From positions 704,001-768,000 of the forward strand of contig CBDBOV010000003.1 in the NCBI GenBank assembly GCA_965208575.1: DNA of 64,000 nucleotides, given 5' to 3'. The translations under genes were made by a program, and so were the position numbers. Positions 7,443 through 35,951 of this stretch are shown in pieces (the stretch's first letter is position 1; each line of letters begins with the position of its first letter). This DNA comes from Spirochaetia bacterium (lineage in GTDB: Bacteria > Spirochaetota > Spirochaetia > SZUA-6 > Bin103). The notes beneath the pieces were generated by a model. It was not told the DNA's origin. It was given only the letters and a program-made list of their open reading frames with translations, and ran no database searches.

Positions 7443-7484
7443 GTCCGCGCGCCCGGCGCCCGCGGCGCTCCGCTCGCCGCGCGC

Positions 7485-7513
7485 TTGACCGGGGGGCAGG
7501 GGCGGACTACCGT
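7485..7513 (+). promoter_or_regulatory. Sigma70-type promoter for SBP1
   Basis: TTGACC-N17-TACCGT, with SD AAGGAGG upstream of ATG 7558. Confidence 0.6.
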
Positions 7514-7557
7514 GGCCGAATAATCACCTGGCACGGAGTGTTCCAAGGAGGAGATCG

Positions 7558-9510
7558 ATGACTACCAGAGGAGTGTTGCTGAGCGCGGCGCTGGCGCTGC
7601 TGGCGCCGTTTGCGCTGCTGGCGGGCGCCACCGAGGAGGGCTCGGAGTCGAGCACCGAGATGGCCGTTCCGGCCGGCAAGTACAAGGAAGCGCCGATGCT
7701 GGCGGCGCTGGTGGCGGCGGGAGAGCTGCCGCCGGTCGACGAACGGCTGCCGCTGGAGCCGCGGGTGGCGCCGCCGGTGGAGGAGGTCGGCACCTACGGC
7801 GGTACGCTGAACGTGGTGTCCATCGACAAGAACCCGTGGAACGACATCACCGAGTCGCCCGAGAACGTCGGCGCCCGCTTCCTGGAGATGACCGGCGACG
7901 GTTCGGTGGTGCCCGACCTGGCGCGCGGCTACGAGCTGACCGACGACGGCAAGAGCTTCACCGTCTACATGCGCGAGGGGGCGAAGTGGTCGGACGGCCA
8001 CCCGCTCACCGCCGACGACGTAGTCTTCGCGTTCGAGGACATGCACTGGAACGACCAGGTGGAGACCTGGAACCTGTTCCCTGGCGTCAGCAGGGTGGTG
8101 AAGGTGGACGACTACACGGTCCGCTTCGAGATGGACGAACCCTACTTCGCCATGGAGCTGATCATGGTGCAGTGGCCGGGCGGCGAGTGGGTCGCCTTTC
8201 ACCCCAGGCACTACCTGGCGAAGTGGCACATCAACCACAACGACGACGCCGAAGCGGTGGCCGCGGAAGAGGGCTTCGACTCCTGGTCGGAGGCGTTCCG
8301 CTACCACTTCTGGTGGGCGCCGCTGAACGACCTGGACAAGCCGACGGTGATGGCGTGGCGGATTTCCGATCTCACCGCGACGGTCAAGGCGCTTGAGCGC
8401 AATCCATACTTCTACCAGGTCGACGAGGCGGGCCAGCAGCTTCCCTACATCGACCGCGTGGTCGCCACCATCGTGGACCCGGAGCTGTACCACCTGAAGA
8501 TCATCCAGGGCGAGGCGGACATCGCCTCCATGTTTACGGAGTTCAAGAACTGGACCCTGTACAAGCAGAACGAGGAGGCGGGCGACTACACCGTGCACCC
8601 GGCGGCGGGCATCACCGCGGCGCAGACCGGCCTGGAGATCAACCAGAATCACGACGATCCGGGCCTGCGCCAGGTGCTGAACGACGTCCGCTTCCGGCAG
8701 GCGCTGTCGATCTCCCTCAACCGCGAGGAGATCAACAAGGTGATCTACCACGGCCTCGGCGTGCCGTTCCAGGCCACCGCGATGCCGACCGCGAGCTTCT
8801 ACAAGGAAGAGTGGGGCAGGGCGTACAACCAGTTCGATCCCGACGAGGCGAACCGGCTGCTCGACGAGGTGGGCCTGACCGCGCGCGACTCGCGCGGATT
8901 CCGGCTGCGGCCCGACGGCGAGCCGATGTTCCTGGCGGTGGAGGCCACCAGCCGCACCATGCTGGAGCTGGAGCTGGTCAAGGAGTACTGGGAAGACGTC
9001 GGCCTGGAGGTGGGGATCAAGGAATTGCCCAATGCGCTGTTCAGCGAGCGCGGCCGGGCGCTCGACCACATCATCACCGTGCACCCGTTCGAGACCACCA
9101 CCGAGGTGGCCAGCTACAACTGGTCGCGCGCCGGTCCGGGCCGCTGGTGCCCGGCGTGGAACCAGTGGCTGCAGGCGAACGAGGACATTCGCAAGGGCAC
9201 CAAGACGCTGGCCGACTTCACCGACGGCATGCTGCCCGGTGAGGAGCCGCCGCAGGACGTCAAGGACCTGTACGAGTGGGGCATCAGCAAGCCGCGCACC
9301 CGGTTCCTGTCACCCGAGTACACCGAGCTGTCGCAGAAGATCTACGACCTGTGGGCGGAGAAGCTGTACATCATCGGCACCGTCGGCATGGCGCCGCAGC
9401 CGGTGATCGCCAAGAACAACCTCGGCAACGTGGTGAAGGAGTACCCGCTGTCCGCCGAGTGGGCCGGCGGCCTGCACAACGAGGTCCAGCAACTGTTCTG
9501 GAAAAACTGA
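7558..9510 (+). CDS. ABC transporter substrate-binding protein, family 5 (SBP1; EAPML...GELPPV subtype)
   Basis: Signal peptide, EAPMLAALVAAGELPPVDERLP, KWSDGHPLTADDVVF, LERNPYFYQVDEAGQQLPYID. Confidence 0.93.
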   Translation: MTTRGVLLSAALALLAPFALLAGATEEGSESSTEMAVPAGKYKEAPMLAALVAAGELPPVDERLPLEPRVAPPVEEVGTYGGTLNVVSIDKNPWNDITESPENVGARFLEMTGDGSVVPDLARGYELTDDGKSFTVYMREGAKWSDGHPLTADDVVFAFEDMHWNDQVETWNLFPGVSRVVKVDDYTVRFEMDEPYFAMELIMVQWPGGEWVAFHPRHYLAKWHINHNDDAEAVAAEEGFDSWSEAFRYHFWWAPLNDLDKPTVMAWRISDLTATVKALERNPYFYQVDEAGQQLPYIDRVVATIVDPELYHLKIIQGEADIASMFTEFKNWTLYKQNEEAGDYTVHPAAGITAAQTGLEINQNHDDPGLRQVLNDVRFRQALSISLNREEINKVIYHGLGVPFQATAMPTASFYKEEWGRAYNQFDPDEANRLLDEVGLTARDSRGFRLRPDGEPMFLAVEATSRTMLELELVKEYWEDVGLEVGIKELPNALFSERGRALDHIITVHPFETTTEVASYNWSRAGPGRWCPAWNQWLQANEDIRKGTKTLADFTDGMLPGEEPPQDVKDLYEWGISKPRTRFLSPEYTELSQKIYDLWAEKLYIIGTVGMAPQPVIAKNNLGNVVKEYPLSAEWAGGLHNEVQQLFWKN

Positions 9511-9533
9511 TCGACGGGTGGCGAGCCATTGGC

Positions 9534-9676
9534 ATCCCGACATAGATCCAGTGAAGGAGGTTCGAATGATACTCAAGGAGCCGCACGCGCGCGCGGCGTG
9601 AGCCGGGGGTGAACCCGGATGAGTCACACCCCGCGCGCGTCACAAATCGACTCAGACCGGCCGCCGCCTTGGCGGG
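9534..9676 (+). ncRNA. Conserved structured leader element, copy A (candidate cis-regulatory RNA)
   Basis: About 80% identical by eye to the reverse complement of 33299-33446. Conserved pairings CACGC/GCGTG, CCGGG/CCCGG and GAGTC/GACTC. Confidence 0.55.
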
Positions 9677-9707
9677 CGCGAAAAACAAACCGACACAGGA
9701 GTTACGT

Positions 9708-11522
9708 ATGCAGATCGTAAAACTCACACGGACCTTCGCGGTTGCGTTGGTCCTCGTAATGACCGCGACCGGCCTGTGGGCCGGTGGCGACAGCGACAGC
9801 GCCGCCGCGCCCGCGGCGGCAGAGCGCGAGTTGGTGCGTGACCCCACCACCGGCAAGATGATCCTCGCACCGCGTTATGGCGGGACGTTCAGCTTCGCGG
9901 CTGTCGGCACGCCGCCGAGCGCCGACGTGTGGTACACCCACCACTCATACGAAGCCATCAACGGTGTCAACGAGACCCTCGCTTTGGGTGACTGGGGGCT
10001 GGACAGGAACGTGTTCGCGTTCAACAGCGACGTCATCCCGGTGTCGGCCATGAGGGGCCTCCTGGCTGAAAGCTGGACGCTGCCCGATGACCTTACCGTC
10101 GTGTTCACCATTCGCGACAACGTGTTCTGGCACGACAAGCCGCCGGTGAACGGGAGGAAGCTCACCGCCCATGACATCGCGTATAACTGGAACCGCTATT
10201 TCGGCCTCGACCAGTTCGCAGACCAGGGAATCTCGCCGGCGTTGGGGGGGACGCGGGAGGGGATGTTCGCGTCGTTCACCGCGACCGACGATCGGACCGT
10301 CGTGTTCAAGCTGGTCCAGCCGCGGTTGGATCCCGTATCCGATATCTTCAATATGATCAGTCGCGCGATCTACGCGCCAGAGGTCATCGACCAGTACGGC
10401 GACGCCCAGGACTGGCAAACCAACGTCGGTACCGGTCCCTACGACTTGGTCGAATGGGTAGAGGACAGCACGTTGGTCTGGAGGCGCGTGGACAACTACT
10501 GGGGGTTTGACGAGAAGTTTCCGGACAACCGCCTGCCCTACATCGACGAGGTGCGCTCGATAATCATCAAGGAACCGGCAGCTCGGATCGCGGCGATCCG
10601 TAGCAGGCAGGTCGATCACCTTGGCATCGCCGGCGGCACGATGATCAACGACATCGGACAGGTGAACAGACTGCGCGAGAGCAACCCGGAGCTGCAGTTC
10701 ACACCGCGGATGTACCGCTGCGAGACCTGTATCGGATTCAACACTACCAAGAAGCCGTTCGATGACATCAATGTCCGCCGCGCCATGCAGATGGCGTTGG
10801 ACCTCGAGACCATGAACAACGACTTCTTCCAAGGCCAGGCCCACTGGGTGCCCGAGGGCATTGTCGGCACCGGCAGCCTGCCCGGGTACTTCACCCCGTT
10901 CTCGGAGTGGCCGGAGGAGATCAAGCAGTACTATCGCTACGATCCCGAGCGCGCCGAGCAGCTCCTCGACGAGGCCGGCTACCCGCGCGGGGCCGACGGC
11001 GTCCGATTCAAGACGCACAATGACGTTTGGGAAGGCCGCGACCTACCCTTCTTCGAGCTGCAGAACGCTTACTGGCGGCAAATCGGGGTGGAGGTGGAGC
11101 TGCGGCCCCACGATGGCGCCACCTTCGTTCCGCTCATTCAAAGTTTGGCGTACGAGGGCATGTCGGGGCGCGAGACGGGTTACTTCATCGCGGACGCTAT
11201 CGGAATTTTGAAAAGCAATACCCATAGCACCTCCACCTGGAACGCTCCGGGTATCGACGACCCGAAGTTGGACGCGATGCTCGACGAGGCGAGCGCGGCG
11301 ACCGACAGGACCGAGCAGGCCAGACTGGGCAATGAAATCAACATGTACGTAATCGCCAACCACTGGTTCCTGTGGTCGCATCGCGTACCGCAGATGTTCG
11401 TGTACCAACCGTGGATCGTCGGCCACAGTGACGAGACTCTCTTGGGAGTCATGGAACGGGGGCCGGTGCAGTTTGCCCGACTGTGGATCGACCAGGAGTT
11501 GAAGGACCAGTATGTCAACTAA
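9708..11522 (+). CDS. ABC transporter substrate-binding protein, family 5 (SBP2)
   Basis: ATG after AGGAG; TATGLWAGG signal, WHDKPPVNGRKLTAHD, VGTGPY, LLDEAGYPRGADGVRFK. Confidence 0.93.
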   Translation: MQIVKLTRTFAVALVLVMTATGLWAGGDSDSAAAPAAAERELVRDPTTGKMILAPRYGGTFSFAAVGTPPSADVWYTHHSYEAINGVNETLALGDWGLDRNVFAFNSDVIPVSAMRGLLAESWTLPDDLTVVFTIRDNVFWHDKPPVNGRKLTAHDIAYNWNRYFGLDQFADQGISPALGGTREGMFASFTATDDRTVVFKLVQPRLDPVSDIFNMISRAIYAPEVIDQYGDAQDWQTNVGTGPYDLVEWVEDSTLVWRRVDNYWGFDEKFPDNRLPYIDEVRSIIIKEPAARIAAIRSRQVDHLGIAGGTMINDIGQVNRLRESNPELQFTPRMYRCETCIGFNTTKKPFDDINVRRAMQMALDLETMNNDFFQGQAHWVPEGIVGTGSLPGYFTPFSEWPEEIKQYYRYDPERAEQLLDEAGYPRGADGVRFKTHNDVWEGRDLPFFELQNAYWRQIGVEVELRPHDGATFVPLIQSLAYEGMSGRETGYFIADAIGILKSNTHSTSTWNAPGIDDPKLDAMLDEASAATDRTEQARLGNEINMYVIANHWFLWSHRVPQMFVYQPWIVGHSDETLLGVMERGPVQFARLWIDQELKDQYVN

Positions 11523-11612: not shown

Positions 11613-12569
11613 GTGCGAGCCTACCTCGTCCGCAGACTGCTGCTGATCATTCCGACTCTCTTCATACTCAGCGCGATGGTGTTCCTGTCCGTGCGCTTCA
11701 TCCCCGGCGACGTCATCGACGCGCTGGAAGGACGCATGAGCTACCTCGCCGAGCCCCTCGACCGCGATGCTATGGAGCGAATACTCGGACTCGACCAACC
11801 GGTGGCCGTTCAGTACGTTCGCTGGCTGTCGGACATCTTCCTGCGCGGCACGCTGGGCAAGTCTCTGCTGGGCAACCTCACCGTGGAGGCGAAGATCTGG
11901 GCTCGTGTCGGGCCGACGCTGCAACTGGGCCTGATGGCGCTGTTCATCGCCCTGGTTGTTGCTCTTCCCGTCGGTGTCTACTCGGCCATCCGCCAGGACA
12001 CCGCGGCAGATTACGCGAGCCGGACGGTCGCCGTTCTGGGGCTGGCAACGCCGAACTTCTGGCTGGCGATCATGGTCATCATCTTCCCTGCGCTGTGGTG
12101 GGACTGGTCGCCGCCCGTACTCATGGTGAGGTTCGTGGATGATCCCTGGAGGAGCCTCGGGATGTTCTTGATCCCGAGCATCATCCTCGGCACCTCTCTC
12201 TCGGCCGGCACCATGCGCTTTACCCGTACGATGATGTTGGAGGTGCTGCGGCAGGATTACGTGCGTACCGCGTGGGCCAAGGGCCTCAGGGAGCGACTGG
12301 TCGTCGTGCGCCACGCCATCAAGAACGCGATGATCCCGGTGGTGTCCGCAATCGGCCTGGGGCTGCCGATCCTGGTGGGCGGCTCGGTCATCATCGAGAA
12401 CATCTACAACATCCCGGGCATGGGCCAGCTGCTCCTGGTGGCGCTGCAGGATCGAGATTACCCGGTCGTCTCGGGCATAAACCTGTTCTTCGGCACCAGC
12501 GTGATCCTGATCAACCTGCTCATCGACCTGATCTATGTCTATCTCGACCCCCGAGTCCGCTACCACTAA
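11613..12569 (+). CDS. ABC permease, DppB/OppB-like
   Basis: YLVRRLLLIIPTL, RTMMLEVLRQDYVRTAWAKGL (EAA loop), YLDPRVRY. Confidence 0.95.
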   Translation: MRAYLVRRLLLIIPTLFILSAMVFLSVRFIPGDVIDALEGRMSYLAEPLDRDAMERILGLDQPVAVQYVRWLSDIFLRGTLGKSLLGNLTVEAKIWARVGPTLQLGLMALFIALVVALPVGVYSAIRQDTAADYASRTVAVLGLATPNFWLAIMVIIFPALWWDWSPPVLMVRFVDDPWRSLGMFLIPSIILGTSLSAGTMRFTRTMMLEVLRQDYVRTAWAKGLRERLVVVRHAIKNAMIPVVSAIGLGLPILVGGSVIIENIYNIPGMGQLLLVALQDRDYPVVSGINLFFGTSVILINLLIDLIYVYLDPRVRYH

Positions 12570-12570
12570 C

Positions 12571-13539
12571 GTGGTAACGAGCAAGCCGGCGACCAGCGGG
12601 CCGGCCACGCGCCGGCGCTCGCCGTTCGTCCTCTTTTTCGGACGACTCATCAAGGAAAAACCGCTCGGCGCGGTCAGCGCGGCCGTCGTCGTGATCCTGG
12701 TCCTGATGAGTGTCTTTGCCGGCGCACTGGCTCCGTACGACATCGAGGACTTCAACGCCAAGGATCGCCTGCAGGGCCCATCCGCTGCGCACCCACTGGG
12801 CACCGACCACCTCGGCCGTGACCTCCTGACTCGGATCCTCTTCGGGGGCCGTCTGTCGCTGTTCGTGGGCCTGAGCGCGACCGCGGTCAACGTTCTTGTG
12901 GCGCTGTTGGTGGGAGGTGTCTCGGGCTACGTCGGCGGGAGGGTCGATATCGTGGTACAACGGTTCGTGGATGCCTGGATGGCGTTCCCGGGGCTACTGC
13001 TGTTGTTGACGATCATGTCCATCGTCGGCCGTGGGGTGCCGCAGGTCATCCTCGTGCTCGGCGTCACCGGCGGCATTGCCGGCTCACGGGTGGTGCGCGG
13101 GGCCGTCATTGGCGTGCGCGAGAACACGTATTTCCAGGCCGCGCAGACCGTCGGCAGCCCGCTCGGCAGGACGGTCGTGCGCCATGTGATACCCAACATC
13201 GCGCCGGTGCTGATCGTCATCTTCAGCATCAACATCGGCGGCGTCATCATCAGCGAGGCATCCTTGAGCTTTCTCGGCTTCGGGCTGCCGATCGAGGTAC
13301 CGAGCTGGGGTGGCCTCCTGAGCCGCGAGGGGCGCACCTTCATGGAGCAGGCGCCACATCTGGCAGTGTGGCCGGGACTGTTTCTCACCATTACGGTATA
13401 CAGCCTGAACAACCTCGGCGACGCCGTACGCGACCTGCTCGATCCGCGGCTCCGGGGAGAAGCGGGACGCTACGAGCGGGTGGCGCCCAAACCGTCGCGA
13501 GCGGTGCGTCCGGCCGACGCACGCTCCGGCAACCCTTGA
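12571..13539 (+). CDS. ABC permease, DppC/OppC-like
   Basis: HPLGTDHLGRDLLTR, EASLSFLGFG, LGDAVRDLLDPR. GTG start 1 nt after the dppB stop. Confidence 0.93.
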   Translation: MVTSKPATSGPATRRRSPFVLFFGRLIKEKPLGAVSAAVVVILVLMSVFAGALAPYDIEDFNAKDRLQGPSAAHPLGTDHLGRDLLTRILFGGRLSLFVGLSATAVNVLVALLVGGVSGYVGGRVDIVVQRFVDAWMAFPGLLLLLTIMSIVGRGVPQVILVLGVTGGIAGSRVVRGAVIGVRENTYFQAAQTVGSPLGRTVVRHVIPNIAPVLIVIFSINIGGVIISEASLSFLGFGLPIEVPSWGGLLSREGRTFMEQAPHLAVWPGLFLTITVYSLNNLGDAVRDLLDPRLRGEAGRYERVAPKPSRAVRPADARSGNP

Positions 13540-24330: not shown

Positions 24331-26145
24331 CTAGGGCCCCATCTCCTCCTTGGTCGCGTGGTCGATCCACAGGCGCGCGAAGATCGTGTAGCTGTCCACG
24401 TCGCCCAGGTTGTTTTCGCCGTTGTAGCCGACGATCCACGGCTGCGTCACCGCAACCTGCGGCATGATCGGACCCCACAGGTACAGGTGATTCTCGATCA
24501 GGTAGCGATCCGCCTCCAGGATCAACTGCCGCTCCTCCTCCACCGTCGTCGCCGCGCCCACGGCGGCGATCATCGCGTCGTACTCCGGCACGCTGTGTCC
24601 GGTGGCGTTGTTGTACGCACCCGTGGCCTGCCAGCCGATGGTGGTAACGGGAAGCGGCCGGTTCCAGCCGGTGATGAACCAGATCATCCCTTCGTAGTCG
24701 GCGCCCTGGATCATCGGCCCGAATGCCGCGCCATCCACGACTTGGAGTTCCACGTCGACGCCAATCGCATCCCAGAACTGGAGCATAATCGCGACAAAGC
24801 CCTGGTCGGTTGCCGCTGGGGAAGGATGGGCGTTGAATACGGTCTTGAGCCTGACGCCGTCGGCGCCGCGCGGATATCCGGCTTCGTCGAGCAACGCCTC
24901 CGCACCTTCCGGGTCATAACTGTAGTATCCCCTGATCTCGTCGGACCACTCCGCAACCGGTAACGCGTAGCCGGTGTTGGCGATGCCGACCACGCCGCGC
25001 GGTGTGGGATCCGCGTAGCCCTTGAAGTAGGTGTCCGCCACCGTCTCCAGGTCCAGGGCCATCTGCATTGCCCGGCGCACGCGAACGTCGTCGAACGGCG
25101 GCGCCTTCACGTTGAAGGCGGCCGAATTCTGGCTGCGATTCTGGTACGAATACTGTTTGAGTTCCGGGTTGGTGCGCGCCAGGCCCTCGGTCGCGGGGCC
25201 GGGTGAGAGCGCATACGCGGCGGGACCACCGAGTACGTCGAGCTGGCCCGAGCGCAGCGCCGCCAGGCGCGTCGATTCGTCCGGCATGATCAGGGCCCTG
25301 AACTCGTCGGCGTAGGGCAGCCGGTTGTCCGGAAACTTCTCGTCGTAACCCCAGTAGTCGGGGTGCTTGGTATAGGTAAAGGAAACGTCTGCCACCCGCT
25401 CGGTGAACATGAACGGCCCGGTGCCTATCAGCTTGTTCCAATCCTTGGCGTCGCCGTCCTGCCTGATCACTTCGGGCGGGTACTGATTGCCGTAGATGTC
25501 GCCGACGATGTGGTACAGCGCGGCGAGCATCGGTTCCTGCAACGTGAACACGACCGTGTGGCTGTCGGTTGCCGTGATCGATTCGACCGGCAGCGTGCCG
25601 AGCACGCTGATCACCGGGCTCGGTCCATCGGCGGCAAACTCGCCCAGCCCCAGGTTGCGGTTGAAGTTGAACACGACGTCGTCGGCGACCAGCTCGCGGC
25701 CGTTCACCGGTTCCTTGTCGTGCCACTTCACCCCCTTGCGGATGTTGAGCACAATCGTGGTGGCGTCGGGCTGTTCCCAGCTCTCGGCCAGCTTGCCGGT
25801 GTATTGCGGGAGATTCGGAATGGCGCCGGCGAAGGCGAATTCGTCTCTCGGCAGTCCCCAGTCACCGCCGCCCATTCTCTCCAGGACGATCTTGGTGGGA
25901 TGGATGACAGAGCGGAAGTGCCACATGTCGGCATGCTCGGTCTGCCAGCCGGGGTGGAACAGGCTGGTGATGGTGCCGCCGTACTCCGGCGCGCTGATCA
26001 TTTCGCCGGTGGTGGGGTCGAGCACCATCTCCTTCTCCATCGCCGCGGCCGGCGCCTCCTCGCTGGCCGGGCTCGCCCACAGGCCGGTCGCGGCCAGGAC
26101 CAACCCGAGCAGTGCCGCAACCGGCAATCTGCAGTTTCGTATCAT
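24331..26145 (-). CDS. ABC transporter substrate-binding protein, family 5 (SBP3)
   Basis: AATGLWAS signal, WHDKEPVNGRELVADD, IGTGPF, LLDEAGYPRGADGVR; SD GGAGG. Confidence 0.94.
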   Translation of the reverse strand: MIRNCRLPVAALLGLVLAATGLWASPASEEAPAAAMEKEMVLDPTTGEMISAPEYGGTITSLFHPGWQTEHADMWHFRSVIHPTKIVLERMGGGDWGLPRDEFAFAGAIPNLPQYTGKLAESWEQPDATTIVLNIRKGVKWHDKEPVNGRELVADDVVFNFNRNLGLGEFAADGPSPVISVLGTLPVESITATDSHTVVFTLQEPMLAALYHIVGDIYGNQYPPEVIRQDGDAKDWNKLIGTGPFMFTERVADVSFTYTKHPDYWGYDEKFPDNRLPYADEFRALIMPDESTRLAALRSGQLDVLGGPAAYALSPGPATEGLARTNPELKQYSYQNRSQNSAAFNVKAPPFDDVRVRRAMQMALDLETVADTYFKGYADPTPRGVVGIANTGYALPVAEWSDEIRGYYSYDPEGAEALLDEAGYPRGADGVRLKTVFNAHPSPAATDQGFVAIMLQFWDAIGVDVELQVVDGAAFGPMIQGADYEGMIWFITGWNRPLPVTTIGWQATGAYNNATGHSVPEYDAMIAAVGAATTVEEERQLILEADRYLIENHLYLWGPIMPQVAVTQPWIVGYNGENNLGDVDSYTIFARLWIDHATKEEMGP

Positions 26146-29389: not shown

Positions 29390-30322
29390 TCAAACCGACG
29401 TGGCGGCTTCGACACCCAGCCGCCCGCCACCACCTCGCAGCCGCGGATCGAGCAGGTCCCTGAGGGCGTCACCCAACATGTTGAAGCTGTACACCGCAAT
29501 CGTCAGGCACAGCCCTGGCCACAGAGCCATCCATGGCGCCTGCTCCATATACTGACGTCCTTCCCGGCTGAGCATACCCCCCCAGCTCGGAATATCCACC
29601 GATAGACCGTAGCCAAGGAAGCTGAGAGAAGCCTCAGCCATGATCACGCCGCCGACGTTAATGCTGAAAATGATGATTATGGGAGCGACAATATTGGGCA
29701 GAACATGTCGGATGAGCGTCCTCCATCGCGACGACCCAATCGCCTCCGCCGCCTGAAAATACACGTTTTCTTTAACACCGATAACCGCACTTCTAACCAC
29801 TCTCGAGCCGCCGATACCTCCTGATATGCCCAGGACTGCGATGATCTGAAAAAATCCCCGCCCCACAATGGACATTACCGTTAACAATATGAGCAAAGTT
29901 GGTATAGACATCCATGCATCGACAAATCTCTGCACCGCAATGTCATATTTACCACCAACGAATCCGGAAACGCCGCCGACCAGGATTGCGGCGACGACAT
30001 TCAGTGTAGTCGCGGCCAGACCGACAACTACGGAGATACGAGCCCCGGCGATAAGGCGGCTCAACAAATCTCGCCCCATCTGGTCGGTACCCAGCAGATA
30101 CTGGGCTGATGAGCCCTGCAGTCTGTCTATCAGGTGCATTTCAAAATATGGATGAGGGGCCAATTGATCGCCGAAGATAGCGACAACAATCAATAGCAAT
30201 ACGATAACTCCGCTGGCGACACCGAGCGGCTTCTCTTTCCACAATCTGACAAATAAAATTGCCGCGGCGTTACGTCGCTTTGGCTCACCTACTGGTAATG
30301 GTATCCTTGGGAGATCACTCAT
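29390..30322 (-). CDS. ABC permease, DppC/OppC-like (low GC)
   Basis: YLLGTDQMGRDLLSR, EASLSFLGYG, LGDALRDLLDPR. Confidence 0.94.
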   Translation of the reverse strand: MSDLPRIPLPVGEPKRRNAAAILFVRLWKEKPLGVASGVIVLLLIVVAIFGDQLAPHPYFEMHLIDRLQGSSAQYLLGTDQMGRDLLSRLIAGARISVVVGLAATTLNVVAAILVGGVSGFVGGKYDIAVQRFVDAWMSIPTLLILLTVMSIVGRGFFQIIAVLGISGGIGGSRVVRSAVIGVKENVYFQAAEAIGSSRWRTLIRHVLPNIVAPIIIIFSINVGGVIMAEASLSFLGYGLSVDIPSWGGMLSREGRQYMEQAPWMALWPGLCLTIAVYSFNMLGDALRDLLDPRLRGGGGRLGVEAATSV

Positions 30323-30340: not shown

Positions 30341-31360
30341 CTATTGATAGCGGATCCTGGGGTCCAAGAAGGCATAAAGCATGTCGATCAACAGATTGAT
30401 CGCCAAAACCGCGGCAGCAAAAATCAGGTTTATTGCGGAGACGATCGGGTAGTCTCTTGAATCGATCGCCCTTACGAACAGACGGCCCAACCCCGGCAGA
30501 GCGAATATTTGCTCCAAGATAACGGAGCCACCTATCAGGATAGGTAGCTGCAGGCCGATGAGTGTCACTACTGGAATGAAGGCATTCTTGATGGCGTGCC
30601 GCATGACAACTACCCGTTCCCTGAGCCCCTTCGACCAAGCCGTCCTGATATAGTCTTGCCTGAGCACCTCCAGCATCATGGTGCGCGTCATCCGCATCGT
30701 GCTGGCAGCAAGGGCCGTACCCAGAATCAGGGCCGGCAGGAGAAACATCCCCAGATTCCCCAGCGGGTCTTCCTCGAAGCGAATCAACTCCATCGGTGGC
30801 GACCAGCCCCACCAGAGAGCCGGGTAGAGCAGGGCCATGGTTGCCAGCCAGAAGTTCGGCGTTGCCAAGCCGATGACGGCAACGGTGCGCCCGACGTAGT
30901 CGGCGGCGGTATCCTGGCGGATCGCCGAGTAGACTCCGACGGGCAGGGCTATGAGGAGCCCAATTACTATTGCCAGAATACCAAGCTCAATGGTTACCGG
31001 CAATCTCCCACCTACGATCTCGTCTATCGTACTGCCTCCGCCATACAGCGATTCGCCAAGCGTGCCCTGGAAGAGACCTTTGAACTCGGACTCACCGGTA
31101 CCCCGCCAGTCAGGCGTCGGCAATACCCCTATCCAGCGTAAATACTGCATGTGGGCAGGCACGTCCAGTCCCATAAGACGCTCGAGAGTTTCGCGGTCCC
31201 TGCCACTTGCCGCACGAAAATTATTGCCAGTTTCCATTTGAGCCACCATTGCGTCTACTGTATCGCCGGGGATAAGGCGGACCACAGAAAACACCAAAAT
31301 GGTCAAAATAAACAGGCTGGGGATTGTGAGCAATAGCCGCCTGATGATATAGGTCTTCAC
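30341..31360 (-). CDS. ABC permease, DppB/OppB-like (low GC, mosaic)
   Basis: KTYIIRRLLLTIP, RTMMLEVLRQDYIRTAWSKGL, FLDPRIRYQ. Confidence 0.94.
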   Translation of the reverse strand: MKTYIIRRLLLTIPSLFILTILVFSVVRLIPGDTVDAMVAQMETGNNFRAASGRDRETLERLMGLDVPAHMQYLRWIGVLPTPDWRGTGESEFKGLFQGTLGESLYGGGSTIDEIVGGRLPVTIELGILAIVIGLLIALPVGVYSAIRQDTAADYVGRTVAVIGLATPNFWLATMALLYPALWWGWSPPMELIRFEEDPLGNLGMFLLPALILGTALAASTMRMTRTMMLEVLRQDYIRTAWSKGLRERVVVMRHAIKNAFIPVVTLIGLQLPILIGGSVILEQIFALPGLGRLFVRAIDSRDYPIVSAINLIFAAAVLAINLLIDMLYAFLDPRIRYQ

Positions 31361-31380
31361 GTGTGTGTGCCCCAAGTATG

Positions 31381-31436: not shown

Positions 31437-33239
31437 CTAGTTTCCCGTCATTTCGTTCTTCAGCGCACTATCGATCCAGAGGCGAGAAAAGTGGGTATGA
31501 CGCTCGGCGTATCCCATACCCCATTCACCGTTCCAACCCTGCACCCACGGCTGGGCCACCTGATATAAGGGGACCATAGGTCTAACCAGGCCAAAGTGCT
31601 CCCTTATAACGATCTCATCGATCTCTCGGATGTTGCTAAAAAACTCATCAAGGTCCGCAGCATGCGTGGCGCCATTATAGAACGTTTCGAGACGCGGGTC
31701 CCTCGACTTGCTCAAGCTGTTACCAGCCACGTCTTGGGTGACGGTCCCTGCAATCCAGAGCGCTGGGCGACGTGTCCCCATTATCGCGCAACAATACATG
31801 TCAAACTCGTGCGTGTCCGCGCTCCAGGCAGCGGCCGCCTCAGCTTCAGTATGAGTAGAGATCTCCAAATCAACGCCAACGGCGCGGAAAAACTCTCCGA
31901 CGATTTCGATGTAGGTCGATTCTTGCCGCGGAGAATTGGACGCCGCGAGCTTGAATCGAACGCCGTCGGCGCCGCGTGGATATCCGGCCTCATCAAGCAA
32001 CGCTTCTGCATCTTCCGGGCGATACTCATACTCACGCTTGACCTCGTCGGGCCATTCTTCATATGACCAGACCCAATCGGTAAGATTCGGCATATAAATC
32101 CCATAAGGCGCTACAACTCCTAGACCTTTATAGATACTAGCGTTGATTGCCTCGTTGTCCACTGCCATCTGCAGCGCCTTGCGCACTCTTACGTCCTGCA
32201 TCAGCGGCAAAGACTGGTTGAATGTCAAGGCGCCTGGGGTATTTACAATGAAATGGAATTGGAGTTCAGGGTTGCTCTTCTGCAGGCTTTCTATAGTGTC
32301 GACATTGCTTATCTGAGAGTCGCCTGGGTTACCAACATAATCAACCTTACGCGAGCGCAATGCCGCAATACGTGTGGCCTCGTCTGGTAACAGCACGGAC
32401 CTCAACTCGTCAATATAGGGCACGGGGTTCCCGAATTTTTCGTCAACACCCCAGTAGTCGGGATTCTTTATATAGGTTTGCGAGGCGCCCTCCACAAATT
32501 CAGTCAGTTCATAGGGCCCGGTGCCGACCAGGTTCCTCCAGTCCTCGAAGCTATTTTCATTCACGTATACCTCGGGGGCGTACATAGGAGTCATCTTGTT
32601 CAGGAATAGCTCCTCAGCATTGATCAGAGGATTCGTCAGCTTGAACTCGACCGTATAGTCGTCGGTGGCCGTTATCGAGTCGAACTCCAGACCACCCAGT
32701 GTGTGGGGGTGGGGGGCCGGTGGGAGCTCGGCGAAACGAGCGATACCAGCATAGCGCTCGTAGTTCCATACGACGTCATGAGCATTGAATTCCCGACCGT
32801 TCACCGGCGCCTTGTCATGCCAGTGAACGCCCTGCCGGACATGCCAGATGAACGTCGACTCGTCGGGCATTTCCCAGCTTGTGGCCAGACCGGGTCCGTA
32901 CATCTGTGTGCCCGTATACGCCCAAACCATGTCAGTGACGAGATCCCTGTCTACATCCCAGTTGCCAAAGGCCATCTGCTCCAAAACGCCACTGTAGAAG
33001 TGAGCGGCCCAGCCACTGGCCGACCACACGTCGGCATTCACAGGATAGTGCCTAGGGGCCCACGTGAGTGTCCCGCCATACTCTGGCGCGGTCCACGTCT
33101 GGCCGGAGGCGGGGTCGAACACCGTCTCTCTGTCGGTGGCGGCTGCCGGCTCCTCTTCTTCGCCACCGGCCCAGAGGCCGGTCGCGGTCAGCACCAGGAC
33201 CAGCGCTACCGCGAAGGTCCTTGCAATAGATATCTTCAT
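31437..33239 (-). CDS. ABC transporter substrate-binding protein, family 5 (SBP4; low-GC body)
   Basis: ATG after AAGGAG; RTFAVALVLVLTATGLWAGGEEEE, WHDKAPVNGREF, LLDEAGYPRGADGVRFK. Confidence 0.94.
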   Translation of the reverse strand: MKISIARTFAVALVLVLTATGLWAGGEEEEPAAATDRETVFDPASGQTWTAPEYGGTLTWAPRHYPVNADVWSASGWAAHFYSGVLEQMAFGNWDVDRDLVTDMVWAYTGTQMYGPGLATSWEMPDESTFIWHVRQGVHWHDKAPVNGREFNAHDVVWNYERYAGIARFAELPPAPHPHTLGGLEFDSITATDDYTVEFKLTNPLINAEELFLNKMTPMYAPEVYVNENSFEDWRNLVGTGPYELTEFVEGASQTYIKNPDYWGVDEKFGNPVPYIDELRSVLLPDEATRIAALRSRKVDYVGNPGDSQISNVDTIESLQKSNPELQFHFIVNTPGALTFNQSLPLMQDVRVRKALQMAVDNEAINASIYKGLGVVAPYGIYMPNLTDWVWSYEEWPDEVKREYEYRPEDAEALLDEAGYPRGADGVRFKLAASNSPRQESTYIEIVGEFFRAVGVDLEISTHTEAEAAAAWSADTHEFDMYCCAIMGTRRPALWIAGTVTQDVAGNSLSKSRDPRLETFYNGATHAADLDEFFSNIREIDEIVIREHFGLVRPMVPLYQVAQPWVQGWNGEWGMGYAERHTHFSRLWIDSALKNEMTGN

Positions 33240-33298
33240 CGTTTCTCCTTCGATGTCACGTTGAGAGTATTGCGGAGCGGATTGCCGCTCCCTGGCCA

Positions 33299-33446
33299 CC
33301 CGCAACGCAGACGGCCAGTCCGAGTCAAGTCACCAAATAGCGCGCAGCGTGTGACTCATCCGGGTGCACCCCGGCCCACGCCGAGCGCGCGTGCGGTTAT
33401 TTGAGTATCGTTCGAACCTCCTTCTTCACTGGATCTACGTCGGGAT
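33299..33446 (-). ncRNA. Conserved structured leader element, copy B
   Basis: Homologous to 9534-9676, with the same orientation and similar position relative to the SBP start. Confidence 0.55.
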
Positions 33447-33903: not shown

Positions 33904-35568
33904 TCAGAGAGCGCCGCCGCGCGCCGCCGCCACGGGCGGCTGCCACAGCACGTCGAGCGCCGCCGCCACGTTCAGCGATTCGCCGTACCACTCGGGAGTA
34001 GCGGTGTGCGGACCGATGCTGATGCCGGCCGCCGCCAGGCGCTCCAGGGTCGGCGCCAGCGGCGGCCCGACACCCTCCCAGCGCGGCGCCGGTGGCACCG
34101 CCGCCAGCGGCTCGCCATTCGGGCGCAGGAACCGGAACCCCCCGGCGCCGTCAGCGGCCACCTGAAACCCCTCCTCGTGCACCGCTCGGTGATGGAATCT
34201 GCAGACGAGAACCAGGTTGAAGAGCTGCGTCTCCCCGCCGTCGGCCCAGTGCATGACGTGATGGGCGTCGCAGTGGCGGGACTCGCAGCCGGGGAACTGG
34301 CACTGGTTGCGATCCCTGCTCTGCAGGGCACGGCGCAGGGCGGTCGGGACGGTGCGGGTCTTGCGGCCCACGTCGAGCACCTCGCCGTCGGCGGCGTGGC
34401 ACAGCTCCACGAGGCCGGCATCGCAGGCGACGCGGCGCGCTGCCTCCTTGCCGACGTGGATGCCCCCTGCTTGTTCGATCACCGCCTGCCCGGCGTCGCG
34501 GCCAGGCATCGGGGCCGCCAGGTCGCGGTCGGGCGTCGCCTCGGTGGCCGGTAGTTTCTCCGCGTGCTCGATGGACACTTGCTCCGTCACCGCGTCCAGT
34601 GACGCTGCCGCCGGTGCGCAGGCTGCCTCGCTGCCCGGCGCAATTTCCGCGGAAACGTGCCGCGGGGCCGCGGCGGCCTCGCGGCAGCAAAGCCCGTCAG
34701 CCTCCACGTGTACCGTCACCTGGAAGCGGTCGCCGCTGCTGCCCGGATCAAGCCCGCCGGCCAGCGCGCTCTCGGCCACCAGCCCCAGCGCATCCGCACG
34801 CCGCTGCGCGATGCTCGCCTCGTCGCCGCCGGCGGCATCGTCCTCCTCCGCCGCCGGCACCTGCTCCAGGGCCGCCTCCAGGGCCCGCAGCACTACCGCG
34901 CCTACCTCAGGCGTAAGCCGCGCCCGCAGCACCACCATGCCGTCCTCGTCCACCCGCGTGGTCAGCGTGCGCCGTTCCAGCCGCACCTGCTCGGCGTCCG
35001 GCTGCGCCTCTCGGTCCGCCTGCCGCCACCCGCGCACCAGCCGCTCCACCTGCGCCCCGGTGGCACAGCAGGCCACGGCAATCAGCCGTGCCTCGTTGTC
35101 GGCGGTGGCCACTCGAGTCAGGGCGCGTACGATGGAGTAGGACAGCCGACCGCAGGCCATGGCCGCGGAGAGGTGGTTGAGATCGGCCAGCGCAGCGGCC
35201 ACGCGCAGCTTCTCGCGGGCAGCGCCGAGGTCGAGGCCGGTGCGCCAGTTCAGCCAGTGGGCGCAGGAACGGAAGCCCTCCCAGCCGTGGTGGCGGTCGA
35301 ACTCGCGCACGTCACACAGCAACTCGTAGGTGGCGGCCTGGATGCGCGCCGACAGCTCGGCGATGCGGTTGCCGAGCTGATTCAGGTCGGGCGGTGCCTC
35401 CGGGGCCGGAGGCGCTGCGCTGTCGGCAACGGCGAGCGTCGCAGTCTCGCTCGCGCCGGGCGCCCTCGCAGCGGTGGTGGCCGCGGTCGCGGCCGGGTCG
35501 GTGGCTGCCGGGTCAGGCCGCGCTGACGGCGCCGGCGGGCGCGGCAGCGTATAGGTGTCAGGTGCCAT
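33904..35568 (-). CDS. DUF222 + HNH endonuclease (REP13E12-like, probably mobile)
   Basis: GFRSCAHWLNWRTGLDLGAAREKLRVA, ARRVACDA, LDVGRKTR, CQFPGC...DAHHVMHWADGGET..NLVLVCRFHH. Confidence 0.9.
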   Translation of the reverse strand: MAPDTYTLPRPPAPSARPDPAATDPAATAATTAARAPGASETATLAVADSAAPPAPEAPPDLNQLGNRIAELSARIQAATYELLCDVREFDRHHGWEGFRSCAHWLNWRTGLDLGAAREKLRVAAALADLNHLSAAMACGRLSYSIVRALTRVATADNEARLIAVACCATGAQVERLVRGWRQADREAQPDAEQVRLERRTLTTRVDEDGMVVLRARLTPEVGAVVLRALEAALEQVPAAEEDDAAGGDEASIAQRRADALGLVAESALAGGLDPGSSGDRFQVTVHVEADGLCCREAAAAPRHVSAEIAPGSEAACAPAAASLDAVTEQVSIEHAEKLPATEATPDRDLAAPMPGRDAGQAVIEQAGGIHVGKEAARRVACDAGLVELCHAADGEVLDVGRKTRTVPTALRRALQSRDRNQCQFPGCESRHCDAHHVMHWADGGETQLFNLVLVCRFHHRAVHEEGFQVAADGAGGFRFLRPNGEPLAAVPPAPRWEGVGPPLAPTLERLAAAGISIGPHTATPEWYGESLNVAAALDVLWQPPVAAARGGAL

Positions 35569-35951
35569 GCCGCCATGGTACACCCGGTATTCGGTGCCCC
35601 CGTGCCGGCCCGTGGACGAGCCGCCCGTCCGATTTGGGCTTTGCGGGCCAGACCCGGACGCGGCGGGCCGAGAGCGCGCGCTGAGGGCGCCAAGGGGGGG
35701 CGGAACAGGCGGGGTCGGGGACGTGGCCCAATCGCGCGCCCGAAACCATGTCAACCCCCTCAGGCCCGCAGCGAGCGATTTTCTCGACTTTTTTCAGGCA
35801 CTCGGCCCACGGCGAAGTGACAGCGTGGTCGGCCTGATGATAATCTTGCTGCTCTCCTTACCGCTGACCCCTCGTGGCCTGAGCGCCGGGCCACCGCTCC
35901 GTGAGCCGGGGAGGCTTTTCGGTGGGGGTTGTTTCACGGTATCTGTCTCCC

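Follow-up and report, generated by a model that had tools for sequence, protein, structure and literature searches.

Why two clearly diverged importer genes should be preceded by nearly the same leader is the question raised by the window analyzed here, that is, the whole stretch of 64,000 nucleotides (nt) at C3:704001-768000 of a 6.5-Mb, 67% G+C Spirochaetia assembly. Sequencing runs containing the stretch are mostly sponge or marine metagenomes. Within the window, two genes for substrate-binding proteins (SBPs) each follow a copy of this leader, at 9534-9680 on the forward strand (copy A) and at 33446-33296 on the reverse strand (copy B). A preliminary description of the DNA, made from its letters alone, had placed both copies there, put their identity at about 80%, and held that the SBPs are far more diverged and unlike in G+C content. 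Our measurements agree on all three points. Mean column identity in a MAFFT alignment of the leaders with their flanks is 79%, and global alignment of the cores (9554-9680 vs 33423-33296) gives 78.9%. The two SBPs are 39% identical (242/614), and their coding sequences (CDSs) differ in G+C content (61.7% for A vs 55.9% for B) and in G+C at third codon positions (84% vs 65%). A whole-genome search with copy A as the query retrieves copy B at 87% identity over query positions 5-109 and an E-value of 5.8e-30, so the likeness is not due to chance; the leader is far better conserved than the proteins behind it. The two genes (31437-33239 on the reverse and 9708-11522 on the forward strand) lie 22 kb apart in one genome and differ strongly in codon bias.

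Sequence comparison identifies with high confidence a new, genus-restricted, high-copy family of 5' leaders of SBP_bac_5 importer operons, in which a putatively translated upstream open reading frame (uORF) is fused to a hairpin. The leader heads about fifty paralogous Dpp/Opp-type importer operons in one genus of sponge-associated bacteria.

A high-copy leader family confined to one genus

The preliminary description had treated the element, which measures ~130-165 nt, as a two-copy feature; in this genome (G000) blastn recovered 51 matches at E<=1e-3, an nhmmer profile built from 41 copies recovered 63, and a covariance model recovered 67. This model (R1; 166 positions, 36 pairs) was built from 54 of 60 loci, five duplicates and one weak match having been left out. 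Among the ten other genomes of the genus (g1), R1 found the element in seven, with 93 copies in G005, 46 in G001, 37 in G006, 33 in G003, 7 in G007, and 1 each in G004 and G008; it found no copy in G002 (81% complete), G009, or G010. None of the 13 genomes of the sister genus (g2) carries the element by R1 or by BLAST, and BLAST found it in none of 17 genomes from seven other families of the order. Rfam 15 returned no match at the gathering threshold across the whole window and none at E<=10 for the region 9400-9800, in keeping with the preliminary description, which could not match the element to T-box, TPP, cobalamin, SAM, or glycine riboswitch consensus. Among the papers listed by full-text literature searches, titles and abstract openings reveal no description of such a leader.

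The placement of the copies is as characteristic as their number. At both window loci, Pfam assigns an SBP_bac_5 gene followed by two BPD_transp_1 permeases. In G000 as a whole, where at least 133 PF00496 matches occur among 219 candidates, a purpose-built hidden Markov model delineated 165 SBP5-like open reading frames (ORFs) of >=450 amino acids, 140 of them with an assignable start. In 52 of these 140, the element ends no more than 150 nt upstream on the same strand, and a DppB/C-type permease gene follows within 400 nt in 45 of the 52 ORFs with the element vs 56 of the 88 without it. Copy number tracks the size of the SBP family across species: leader copies and PF00496 candidates number 93 and 226 in G005, 67 and 219 in G000, 46 and 205 in G001, 7 and 90 in G007, 0 and 61 in G009, and 0 and 54 in G010. 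These counts and gene positions bear out the earlier proposal that the conserved leader is tied to an expanded SBP family. By orientation and position we rejected a dispersed repeat of the REP (repetitive extragenic palindrome) or MITE (miniature inverted-repeat transposable element) type, because the great majority of copies lie on the same strand as the SBP gene, ~35 nt before its start, and the 5' boundary of the element coincides with a Shine-Dalgarno (SD) sequence.

On a FastTree phylogeny of the 140 SBPs, inferred after removal of the first 70 residues, the presence or absence of the leader requires 27 changes, vs 42.4 +/- 2.7 (minimum 35) when the labels are shuffled. The leader clusters within one large section of the SBP family and has often been lost or replaced. 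A second cluster of upstream similarity comprises ten SBP genes without the element. Two divergent leader copies lying 6 kb apart in this genome (C3:295768 and C3:301855) are identical over the whole stretch compared, which indicates a recent tandem duplication of a leader-SBP unit. Elsewhere, a lineage of low-G+C metagenome-assembled genomes (L092, L098, L099, L105) has repeated SBP leaders of its own, unrelated to the present family and situated 100-300 nt upstream of SBP5 homologues; they carry at least one small ORF of the type M..LK..F.P..GL..A....SAAK, and this lineage would add an independent example of SBP paralogues headed by uORF-bearing leaders.

A short reading frame with a coding signature

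The conserved part of the leader opens with AGGAGG and a 5-6-nt spacer, followed by the 11-codon consensus ATG ATA CTC AAA GAA CCG CAC GCG CGC GCG GCG TGA (MILKEPHARAA). The columns of the SD reach >=90% conservation; the spacer that follows is constant in length, not in sequence. This arrangement recasts three elements of the preliminary description. The internal AAGGAGG it had pointed out is the uORF's own SD, at 9554-9560 in copy A. What it had read as a conserved T-loop-like GGTTCGAA consists of the last G's of that SD plus the variable 5-nt spacer; since the spacer differs among copies (TTCGA, TGCAA, TGAAG, TCAAG, TCCAA, CTCGA), the T-loop/T-box idea is ruled out. The short uORF it had offered as another possibility was in the right frame (...EVR-MILK) and turns out to be the better-supported core, but its extent was wrong, as family-wide conservation begins at the ATG at 9566 and not upstream of it.

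We assessed the coding signature in 94 unique copies from eight genomes, 78 of which are free of indels over the 36 nt. Start codons among the 78 are ATG in 65, GTG in 5, TTG in 1, and other in 7, and stop codons are TGA in 70, TAA in 3, and other in 5. Across codons 3-6 (LKEP), variants at the first, second, and third positions number 2, 6, and 50, and 47 changes are synonymous vs 10 non-synonymous, counted as copies and not as independent events. All 8 possible synonymous single-base variants of these codons are seen, vs about 5 of the 28 possible non-synonymous ones. Codons 7-8 are free to change, His being replaced by Tyr, Trp, or a stop and Ala by Pro or Val. At codons 9-11 all three positions are nearly invariant, with one of nine possible synonymous variants seen, as is expected if they also form a helix arm; the three Ala codons of MILKEPHARAA belong to the 5' arm of the hairpin P1 described below. 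Divergent copies of other lengths keep the KEP motif despite their different C-termini (LVRKEPRHARGLSP, VILKEPHHARGPSS, LIRKEPQRARGVHP). Judged by this codon pattern, the uORF is a real and presumably translated reading frame, and the bias toward synonymous change is the mark of purifying selection on the amino-acid sequence of codons 3-6.

Codon choice within the frame is unusual as well: the uORF favors the genome's minor A-ending codons, with ATA in 60, AAA in 71, and GAA in 58 of the 78 copies. In SBP genes, the same codons make up 15%, 15%, and 29% of their respective codon families.

The reading frame runs into a hairpin

Downstream of the start, the uORF passes directly into the structured part of the leader. 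P1 is a 12-bp G+C helix between GCGCGCGGCGUG and CACGCCGCGCGC; its 5' arm consists of the last uORF codons plus the TG of the stop (uORF nt 24-35), and the 3' arm, directly preceded by GAGUCA, is its perfect complement. P1b, CC(C/G)GG-GUGAA-CCCGG, lies between the arms. After a variable 10-15 nt comes UGACUC, which is complementary to GAGUCA and would form a second hairpin, P2. The 3' domain then runs CUGGC, P3a, GAGAGUA, GCCAG, P4, GCAA, and UACUCUC, where GAGAGUA pairs with UACUCUC (P5); the pairing of CUGGC with GCCAG (P3) could form a pseudoknot with P5. This domain (P3a, P4, P5) stands 20-35 nt before the importer's ribosome-binding site (RBS), and a variable 15-25 nt leads to the importer SD and ATG. 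Two of the stems listed in the preliminary description, CCGGG/CCCGG and GAGTC/GACTC, are present in both window copies; the third, the local CACGC/GCGTG, is displaced by the long-range P1 in every minimum-free-energy (MFE) fold.

The RNAalifold consensus of 54 sequences contains P1 and part of P3a. When the full structure is imposed on that alignment, 93.6% of cells pair vs 31-48% with the 3' partners slid, a control biased by the derivation of the structure from the same sequences. P1 is 98.3% paired over 53 distinct sequences. ViennaRNA MFE folds of four leaders, copy B not among them, all contain P1 with P1b, P3a, and P5 with P4. Better evidence for P1 than compensatory changes comes from 13 divergent copies that form a 9-19-bp hairpin with other arms (e.g., CAUGCGCGCGGC:GCCGCGCGCAUG or ...GUG): in 12 of the 13 the 5' arm begins inside the 3' part of the uORF, and in 9 of the 13 the stop codon either ends the 5' arm or lies in the loop.

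For the 3' domain we aligned 91 of the 94 unique copies, leaving aside a spurious reverse-strand match, a copy of a short subclass, and one copy with a diverged 3' part. P5 has changes on both sides in four of its seven pairs (GAGAGUG:CACUCUC, GAGAGCA:UGCUCUC, and others) and is 90% paired; P3a and P4 are 98% and 88% paired. The covariation score of the domain is 0.121, vs 0.102 in shuffled alignments (reached in 0 of 500) and 0.044-0.063 with slid partners. The preliminary description had counted a finding of only these two copies, with no covariation, as a refutation; the genus holds hundreds of copies, with ~290 matches to R1, and covariation is modest and mainly in the 3' domain.

Selection on specific parts of the leader is also apparent in how identity is distributed. 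We compared 40 leader-gene pairs of G000, taken from the 41 of 63 matches that score >=100 and precede a recognizable signal peptide, one gene shorter than 560 amino acids being dropped. Mean pairwise identity is 0.44-0.47 upstream of the SD, 0.82-0.91 from uORF to P4 (0.84-0.91 for the uORF and P1), 0.62 in the P2 loop, 0.53 before the SBP SD, 0.85 over the signal-peptide codons (0.80 at third positions), and 0.31-0.60 at third positions of the gene body. This alternation of conserved and free stretches speaks for selection on particular parts and against blanket gene conversion. In the SBP genes themselves, third-position identity falls from 0.80 in the signal-peptide region (..TRTFAVALVLVLTATGLWA..) to 0.58-0.73 over the following ~40 codons and to the values of the gene body, which suggests an RNA-level constraint or exchange of 5' cassettes between paralogues. 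A lipobox cysteine is absent from this signal-peptide region in the G000 SBP genes. Long-range pairing between the leader and the signal-peptide codons was dropped as a candidate, being inconsistent across 38 MFE folds.

A candidate translation-coupled attenuator and its rivals

The observations comprise the number of copies, their placement and orientation, the uORF with its coding signature and its overlap with P1, and the compensatory support for the 3' domain. On this basis we give roughly even chances to the reading that the leader is a translation-coupled attenuator, in which translation of the uORF melts P1 and thereby gates the operon. Because the last four codons and the stop form the 5' arm of P1, a ribosome finishing the uORF would have to melt that helix. 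Its opening would free the C-rich 3' arm, whereupon the flanking GAGUCA/UGACUC hairpin P2 would form. In predicted folds P2 can form only with P1 open, and when a ribosome footprint is masked at the uORF stop, P1 is gone and a hairpin of CCGG-UGAGUCA with UGACUCA-..CUGG (P2) appears instead; a switch made up of the uORF and P1/P2 is plausible on this modeling. Ribosome occupancy of the uORF end, set by initiation, elongation through LKEP, or termination, would decide between P1 and P2 and hence how much full-length operon mRNA is made or kept. We infer that the choice between the two hairpins alters expression; candidate output routes are termination that is U-tract-less or of the Rho type, as the freed arm and its flank are C-rich, differential decay, or recognition by a factor. 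The effect would be one common gate on many importers, added to operon-specific promoters in the variable upstream modules.

A number of observations weigh against this reading, as do some of the departures from classical attenuators taken up at the end. Several concern the uORF. The preference for minor codons points to selection at the RNA level too, either to keep an A-rich initiation region open or to slow decoding. Indels interrupt the uORF in 16 of the 94 unique copies, three copies have TAG at codon 7, and copy B has no start and an internal stop, so that the uORF is dispensable in some copies. The consensus MILKEPHARAA contains no run of codons for one regulatory amino acid. The structural support is uneven in the same way: compensatory changes affect one of the 12 pairs of P1 and none of the six of P2, and half of P1 is alternating GC, which is self-complementary regardless. 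Relative to dinucleotide shuffles, folding energy has z-scores of -1.0 for copy A and -0.3 for copy B, about one standard deviation or less, so that thermodynamics alone lend no support; the reverse strand of copy A, at -1.9, lies beyond the leader strand. Footprint masking leaves the 3' domain and the importer RBS unchanged, the importer SD is sequestered in neither fold, and no fold of the four leaders links the P1/P2 switch to the downstream start site.

The make-up of individual copies belongs on the same side of the balance. Several leaders consist of the 3' domain only (nhmmer matches limited to profile positions 126-186), and copy A carries the 5' domain without P4/P5; leaders holding one domain only mark the 5' and 3' domains as separable units. 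Both window copies are atypical members of the family, A in lacking P4/P5 and B in having a dead uORF. Copy A shares with L014, L015, and L046 an end after P3a that leads straight to the SBP start, without P3, P4, and P5. Copy B, like L019 and L024, has no GAGAGUA strand of P5; in B this strand (GAGAGTA in the DNA) is deleted.

Transcription supplies the remaining counterpoints. A simple scan of the leader strand of either window copy found neither a U-tract terminator nor a sigma-70 match; UUCAC follows P1, and the sequence after P5 is A-rich. Inspection by eye gave candidate TTGAC-N17-18-xAxxxT-like sites ~340 nt ahead of the uORF in copy B and 60-110 nt ahead of it in several further copies. 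Among assembled contigs of four metatranscriptome runs from four studies, the leader core occurs in three runs. Many of these RNA contigs diverge from the window exactly before 9565/9566 yet hold GGAGG-like or SD-like runs, and one of 1744 nt links a uORF core with an SBP CDS, with 226 nt of different sequence between them. The contigs fit a transcribed leader family; since the libraries may contain carried-over DNA, they do not prove transcription, and they give no transcript ends, strand, or level. Summed depth is high over 9540-9647 because paralogous copies pile up there, and was rejected as a measure of expression level; the bin 9648-9701 is uncovered in three runs because of copy A's atypical 3' part.

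Several of these counterpoints speak for the main rival, a serious minority possibility in our estimate: a constitutive, non-regulatory portable cassette in which the SD and an A-rich mini-ORF load ribosomes while the P1, P3a, and P4/P5 hairpins shield the mRNA from exonucleases, the whole having been copied along with a successful importer family. Minor A-ending codons typify initiation regions that are unstructured and efficient, neither a terminator nor a fold sequestering the RBS was found, the modules also occur separately, copies with a dead uORF persist, and the clustering of the leader on the SBP tree (27 vs 42.4 +/- 2.7 changes) is consistent with co-duplication. Mere ribosome loading, however, needs no conservation of LKEP at the amino-acid level with free wobble positions. 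Divergent subfamilies, moreover, keep the overlap between uORF end and P1 arm with other arms, which suggests a coupling of translation and folding.

A special case of the attenuator reading, rather unlikely in our view, takes the peptide itself as the sensor: nascent M-I/V-L-K-E-P-... would arrest the ribosome on a small molecule or a translation status, and the stalled ribosome would hold P1 open. The purifying selection on codons 3-6 and the KEP motif kept in divergent copies are in its favor, and by inferred geometry a ribosome whose P site holds Pro6 or His7 would overlie roughly half of the 5' arm of P1. Residues 7-8 are nevertheless freely variable, the minor-codon preference suggests RNA-level constraints able to mimic part of the signal, and to our knowledge MILKEPHARAA contains no known arrest motif, which counts against a sensor. 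Its full form, a single nascent peptide (M-I-L-K-E-P...) gating 50-90 importer operons as a genome-wide 'uptake valve' borne by the ribosome, we hold to be just as unlikely. If true, such a valve evolved within one sponge-symbiont genus and spread with an explosive expansion of SBP_bac_5, and, in controlling a full set of paralogous transporters and not a single operon, it would have no known precedent among arrest-peptide-type leaders.

Improbable, to our mind, is a docking platform on which one RNA-binding protein or small RNA (sRNA) recognizes invariant motifs (UGAGUCACAC, GCAAUACUCUC, the GGA-containing RBS hairpin) to form a regulon of ~50 operons, with the uORF secondary. In other bacteria, single sRNAs (GcvB, AbcR) hold many SBP mRNAs together as a regulon. 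The block with the highest invariance in the element, GAGTCACAC, would suit such a site, as would the near confinement of certain motifs to leaders (TGAGTCACAC 38 times inside vs 4 outside, GCAATACTCTC 30 vs 1). Exact reverse complements of five leader motifs, however, lie almost only in leaders, a narrow test that found no partner, and the codon-position pattern of the uORF is left unexplained.

The same pattern, together with the conservation of SD, start, and stop, is equally unexplained by a DNA-level element, a very improbable reading in which the palindromic, mutually inverted heptamers TGAGTCA/TGACTCA would be operators of a dimeric transcription factor past the promoter, or part of an internal promoter (TTGACT...). 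Both heptamers are nearly invariant without RNA-type compensatory change, and TTGAC lies inside the P2 3' strand; their spacing varies by ~6 nt (21-27 nt), which a loop tolerates and paired operators tolerate poorly, and no -10-like hexamer follows 16-18 nt on. Least probable of all is the idea the preliminary description had favored, a metabolite riboswitch of a new class: a conserved leader with several conserved hairpins before transporter genes and no Rfam match invites it, but there is no T-loop and no folding energy beyond that of shuffles, no multi-stem junction with conserved unpaired nucleotides was seen, the best-conserved stretch is a reading frame, and one ligand for ~50 importers of diverged specificity (SBPs ~39% identical) is implausible.

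The translation-coupled attenuator would matter for its hosts and as material. In the uncultured sponge symbionts of this genus, Dpp/Opp-type importers take up an extraordinary share of the genome, with ~200 PF00496 candidates per genome in three species, and through one homologous leader on a third of the operons, translational or nutritional status could gate the set by simple means. The leader adds a well-populated candidate family to bacterial cis-regulatory leaders, and its several hundred natural variants in one genus are unusually good material for mutational logic and covariance modeling, in a test system of ~200 nt that can be carried to reporters.

Modular architecture and neighboring genes

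The features of the two copies and the importer genes they serve are collected in Table 1.

Table 1. Leader features and importer genes at the two window loci (window positions; reverse-strand features may be written from high to low)
Feature	Position	Strand	Details
Copy A, remnant of variable 5' module	9534-9553	+	class 'GATCCCGAC.TAGATC'; starts 24 nt past stop of gene 7558-9510
Copy A, SD AAGGAGG	9554-9560	+	then 5-nt spacer 9561-9565
Copy A, uORF	9566-9601	+	ATG ATA CTC AAG GAG CCG CAC GCG CGC GCG GCG TGA = MILKEPHARAA*
Copy A, P1	9589-9638	+	arms 9589-9600 and 9627-9638; mismatch C9597/C9630
Copy A, P1b capping P1	9603-9607 with 9614-9618	+	
Copy A, candidate P2	9621-9653	+	GAGTCA 9621-9626 with GACTC 9649-9653; encloses P1 3' arm
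Copy A, P3a	9658-9678	+	CCGCC 9661-9665 with GGCGG 9671-9675
SBP_bac_5 gene served by A	9698-11522	+	SD GGAG 9698-9701; ATG 9708; PF00496 E 5.4e-61
Permease genes after A's SBP, DppB/DppC-type	11613-12569, 12535-13539	+	PF00528 for both
Permease genes after B's SBP	30341-31375, 29390-30322	-	Pfam (BPD_transp_1)
SBP_bac_5 gene served by B	31437-33239	-	ATG 33239; PF00496 E 2.4e-65
Copy B, 3' domain	33263-33318	-	P3 CTGGCC/GGCCAG 33318-33313 with 33297-33292
Copy B, parts of 3' domain	P3a 33312-33298; P4 33292-33274	-	conserved AATACTCTC 33271-33263
Copy B, candidate P2	33322-33357	-	GAGTCA 33357-33352 with TGACTC 33327-33322
Copy B, P1 with P1b	33340-33388	-	arms 33388-33377 and 33351-33340
Copy B, decayed uORF	33376-33411	-	ACG for ATG (33411-33409); TAA for codon 5 (33399-33397); TGG for stop (33378-33376)
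Copy B, SD AAGGAGG	33417-33423	-	
Copy B, end of variable 5' module	33424-33446	-	class as in A

Upstream of the uORF, the leaders are headed by modules of several unrelated repeated classes, usually ending in a small hairpin. Besides A and B, about five copies belong to the class 'GATCCCGAC.TAGATC'. In about ten G000 copies (e.g., C4:509098 and C6:953138), another repeated module (..GATACCCGGCCCGCACGTACCCCTGTCAACGC..CATGACTCGGGGCCGCCGTGGGTCGC..TTCATTCACAACACC..) lies 100-170 nt upstream of the uORF, and other classes of copies have different upstream modules, the leaders being mosaics of exchangeable parts. At the other end, the importer SD and ATG in G000 often lie in a small hairpin with GGA in its loop, ~20 nt before the SBP start, whose stems differ by subfamily yet stay complementary (CAUACG..CGUAUG, UUCA..UGAA, ATGG..CCAT); the arrangement resembles the GGA-in-loop sites bound by CsrA-type proteins. 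A third SBP_bac_5 gene of the window (24331-26145, reverse strand) is preceded by a P5-like GAGAGTG...CACTCTC hairpin at 26211-26175, then CAACAGAAAC and an SD, and neither a uORF nor a P1 counterpart lies ahead of it; the leader's 3' domain seems to have a wider distribution than profile matches imply.

The SBP gene just upstream of copy A (7558-9510, forward strand) is without such a leader. The region 7480-7560 on the same strand contains a promoter-like site, TTGACC-N17-TACCGT, and a ~45-nt untranslated region with AGGAGG before this gene. As this gene has its own promoter-like site and no leader, copy A is intercistronic between two tandem SBP genes. On the copy B side, an ORF at 33904-35754, on the reverse strand like the leader and 450 nt upstream of it, matches DUF222 and, weakly, HNH endonuclease.

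Comparison with known systems

The comparisons that follow, with trp-type attenuators, the TnaC, SpeFL, and Erm leaders, the GcvB and AbcR regulons, and REP elements, serve as analogies. In leader-peptide attenuators (trp, his, phe, thr, and ilv-leu; pyrBI), the position of the translating ribosome picks one of two mutually exclusive hairpins. The present leader is like them in placing a short ORF with its own SD before the operon and running it into the first arm of a strong hairpin. The uORF appears to be of their kind in its SD, its alternating ATG/GTG/TTG starts and TGA/TAA stops, and its third-position variation. The overlap of uORF nt 24-35 with the P1 5' arm and the mutually exclusive hairpins likewise recall them, the layout being found in 12 of 13 divergent copies, with P2 lacking covariation. 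Unlike classical attenuators, it has no cognate-codon run, no U-tract terminator, and no Rfam leader match; it also serves transporters and not biosynthesis, in 50-90 copies per genome and not one per operon type.

Nascent-peptide arrest leaders are represented by TnaC of tna, SpeFL of speF, ErmBL/ErmCL, and MgtL. The uORF resembles them in its conserved amino-acid sequence, in a stop that adjoins RNA with a presumed control function, and in a segment past the stop that is C-rich, as at a Rho entry site. It differs in that the peptide resembles none of theirs, residues 7-8 are variable, and the genes concerned are importers in many paralogous operons.

The regulons of GcvB in enterobacteria and of AbcR1/2 in Rhizobiales likewise unite many SBP and importer mRNAs through a common feature of the 5' untranslated region. 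There, a trans-acting RNA recognizes a short motif in each target, whereas here the common feature is a homologous cis module of 130-165 nt with an ORF, for which no trans partner was found. Finally, REP elements and bacterial interspersed mosaic elements (BIMEs) are, like the leader, high-copy, G+C-rich, hairpin-forming intergenic repeats, often beside SBP genes, and copy A indeed lies between two of them. Unlike these repeats, the leader keeps a fixed orientation and distance to a start codon, contains an SD and an ORF, is much longer, and is distributed along with a single gene family.

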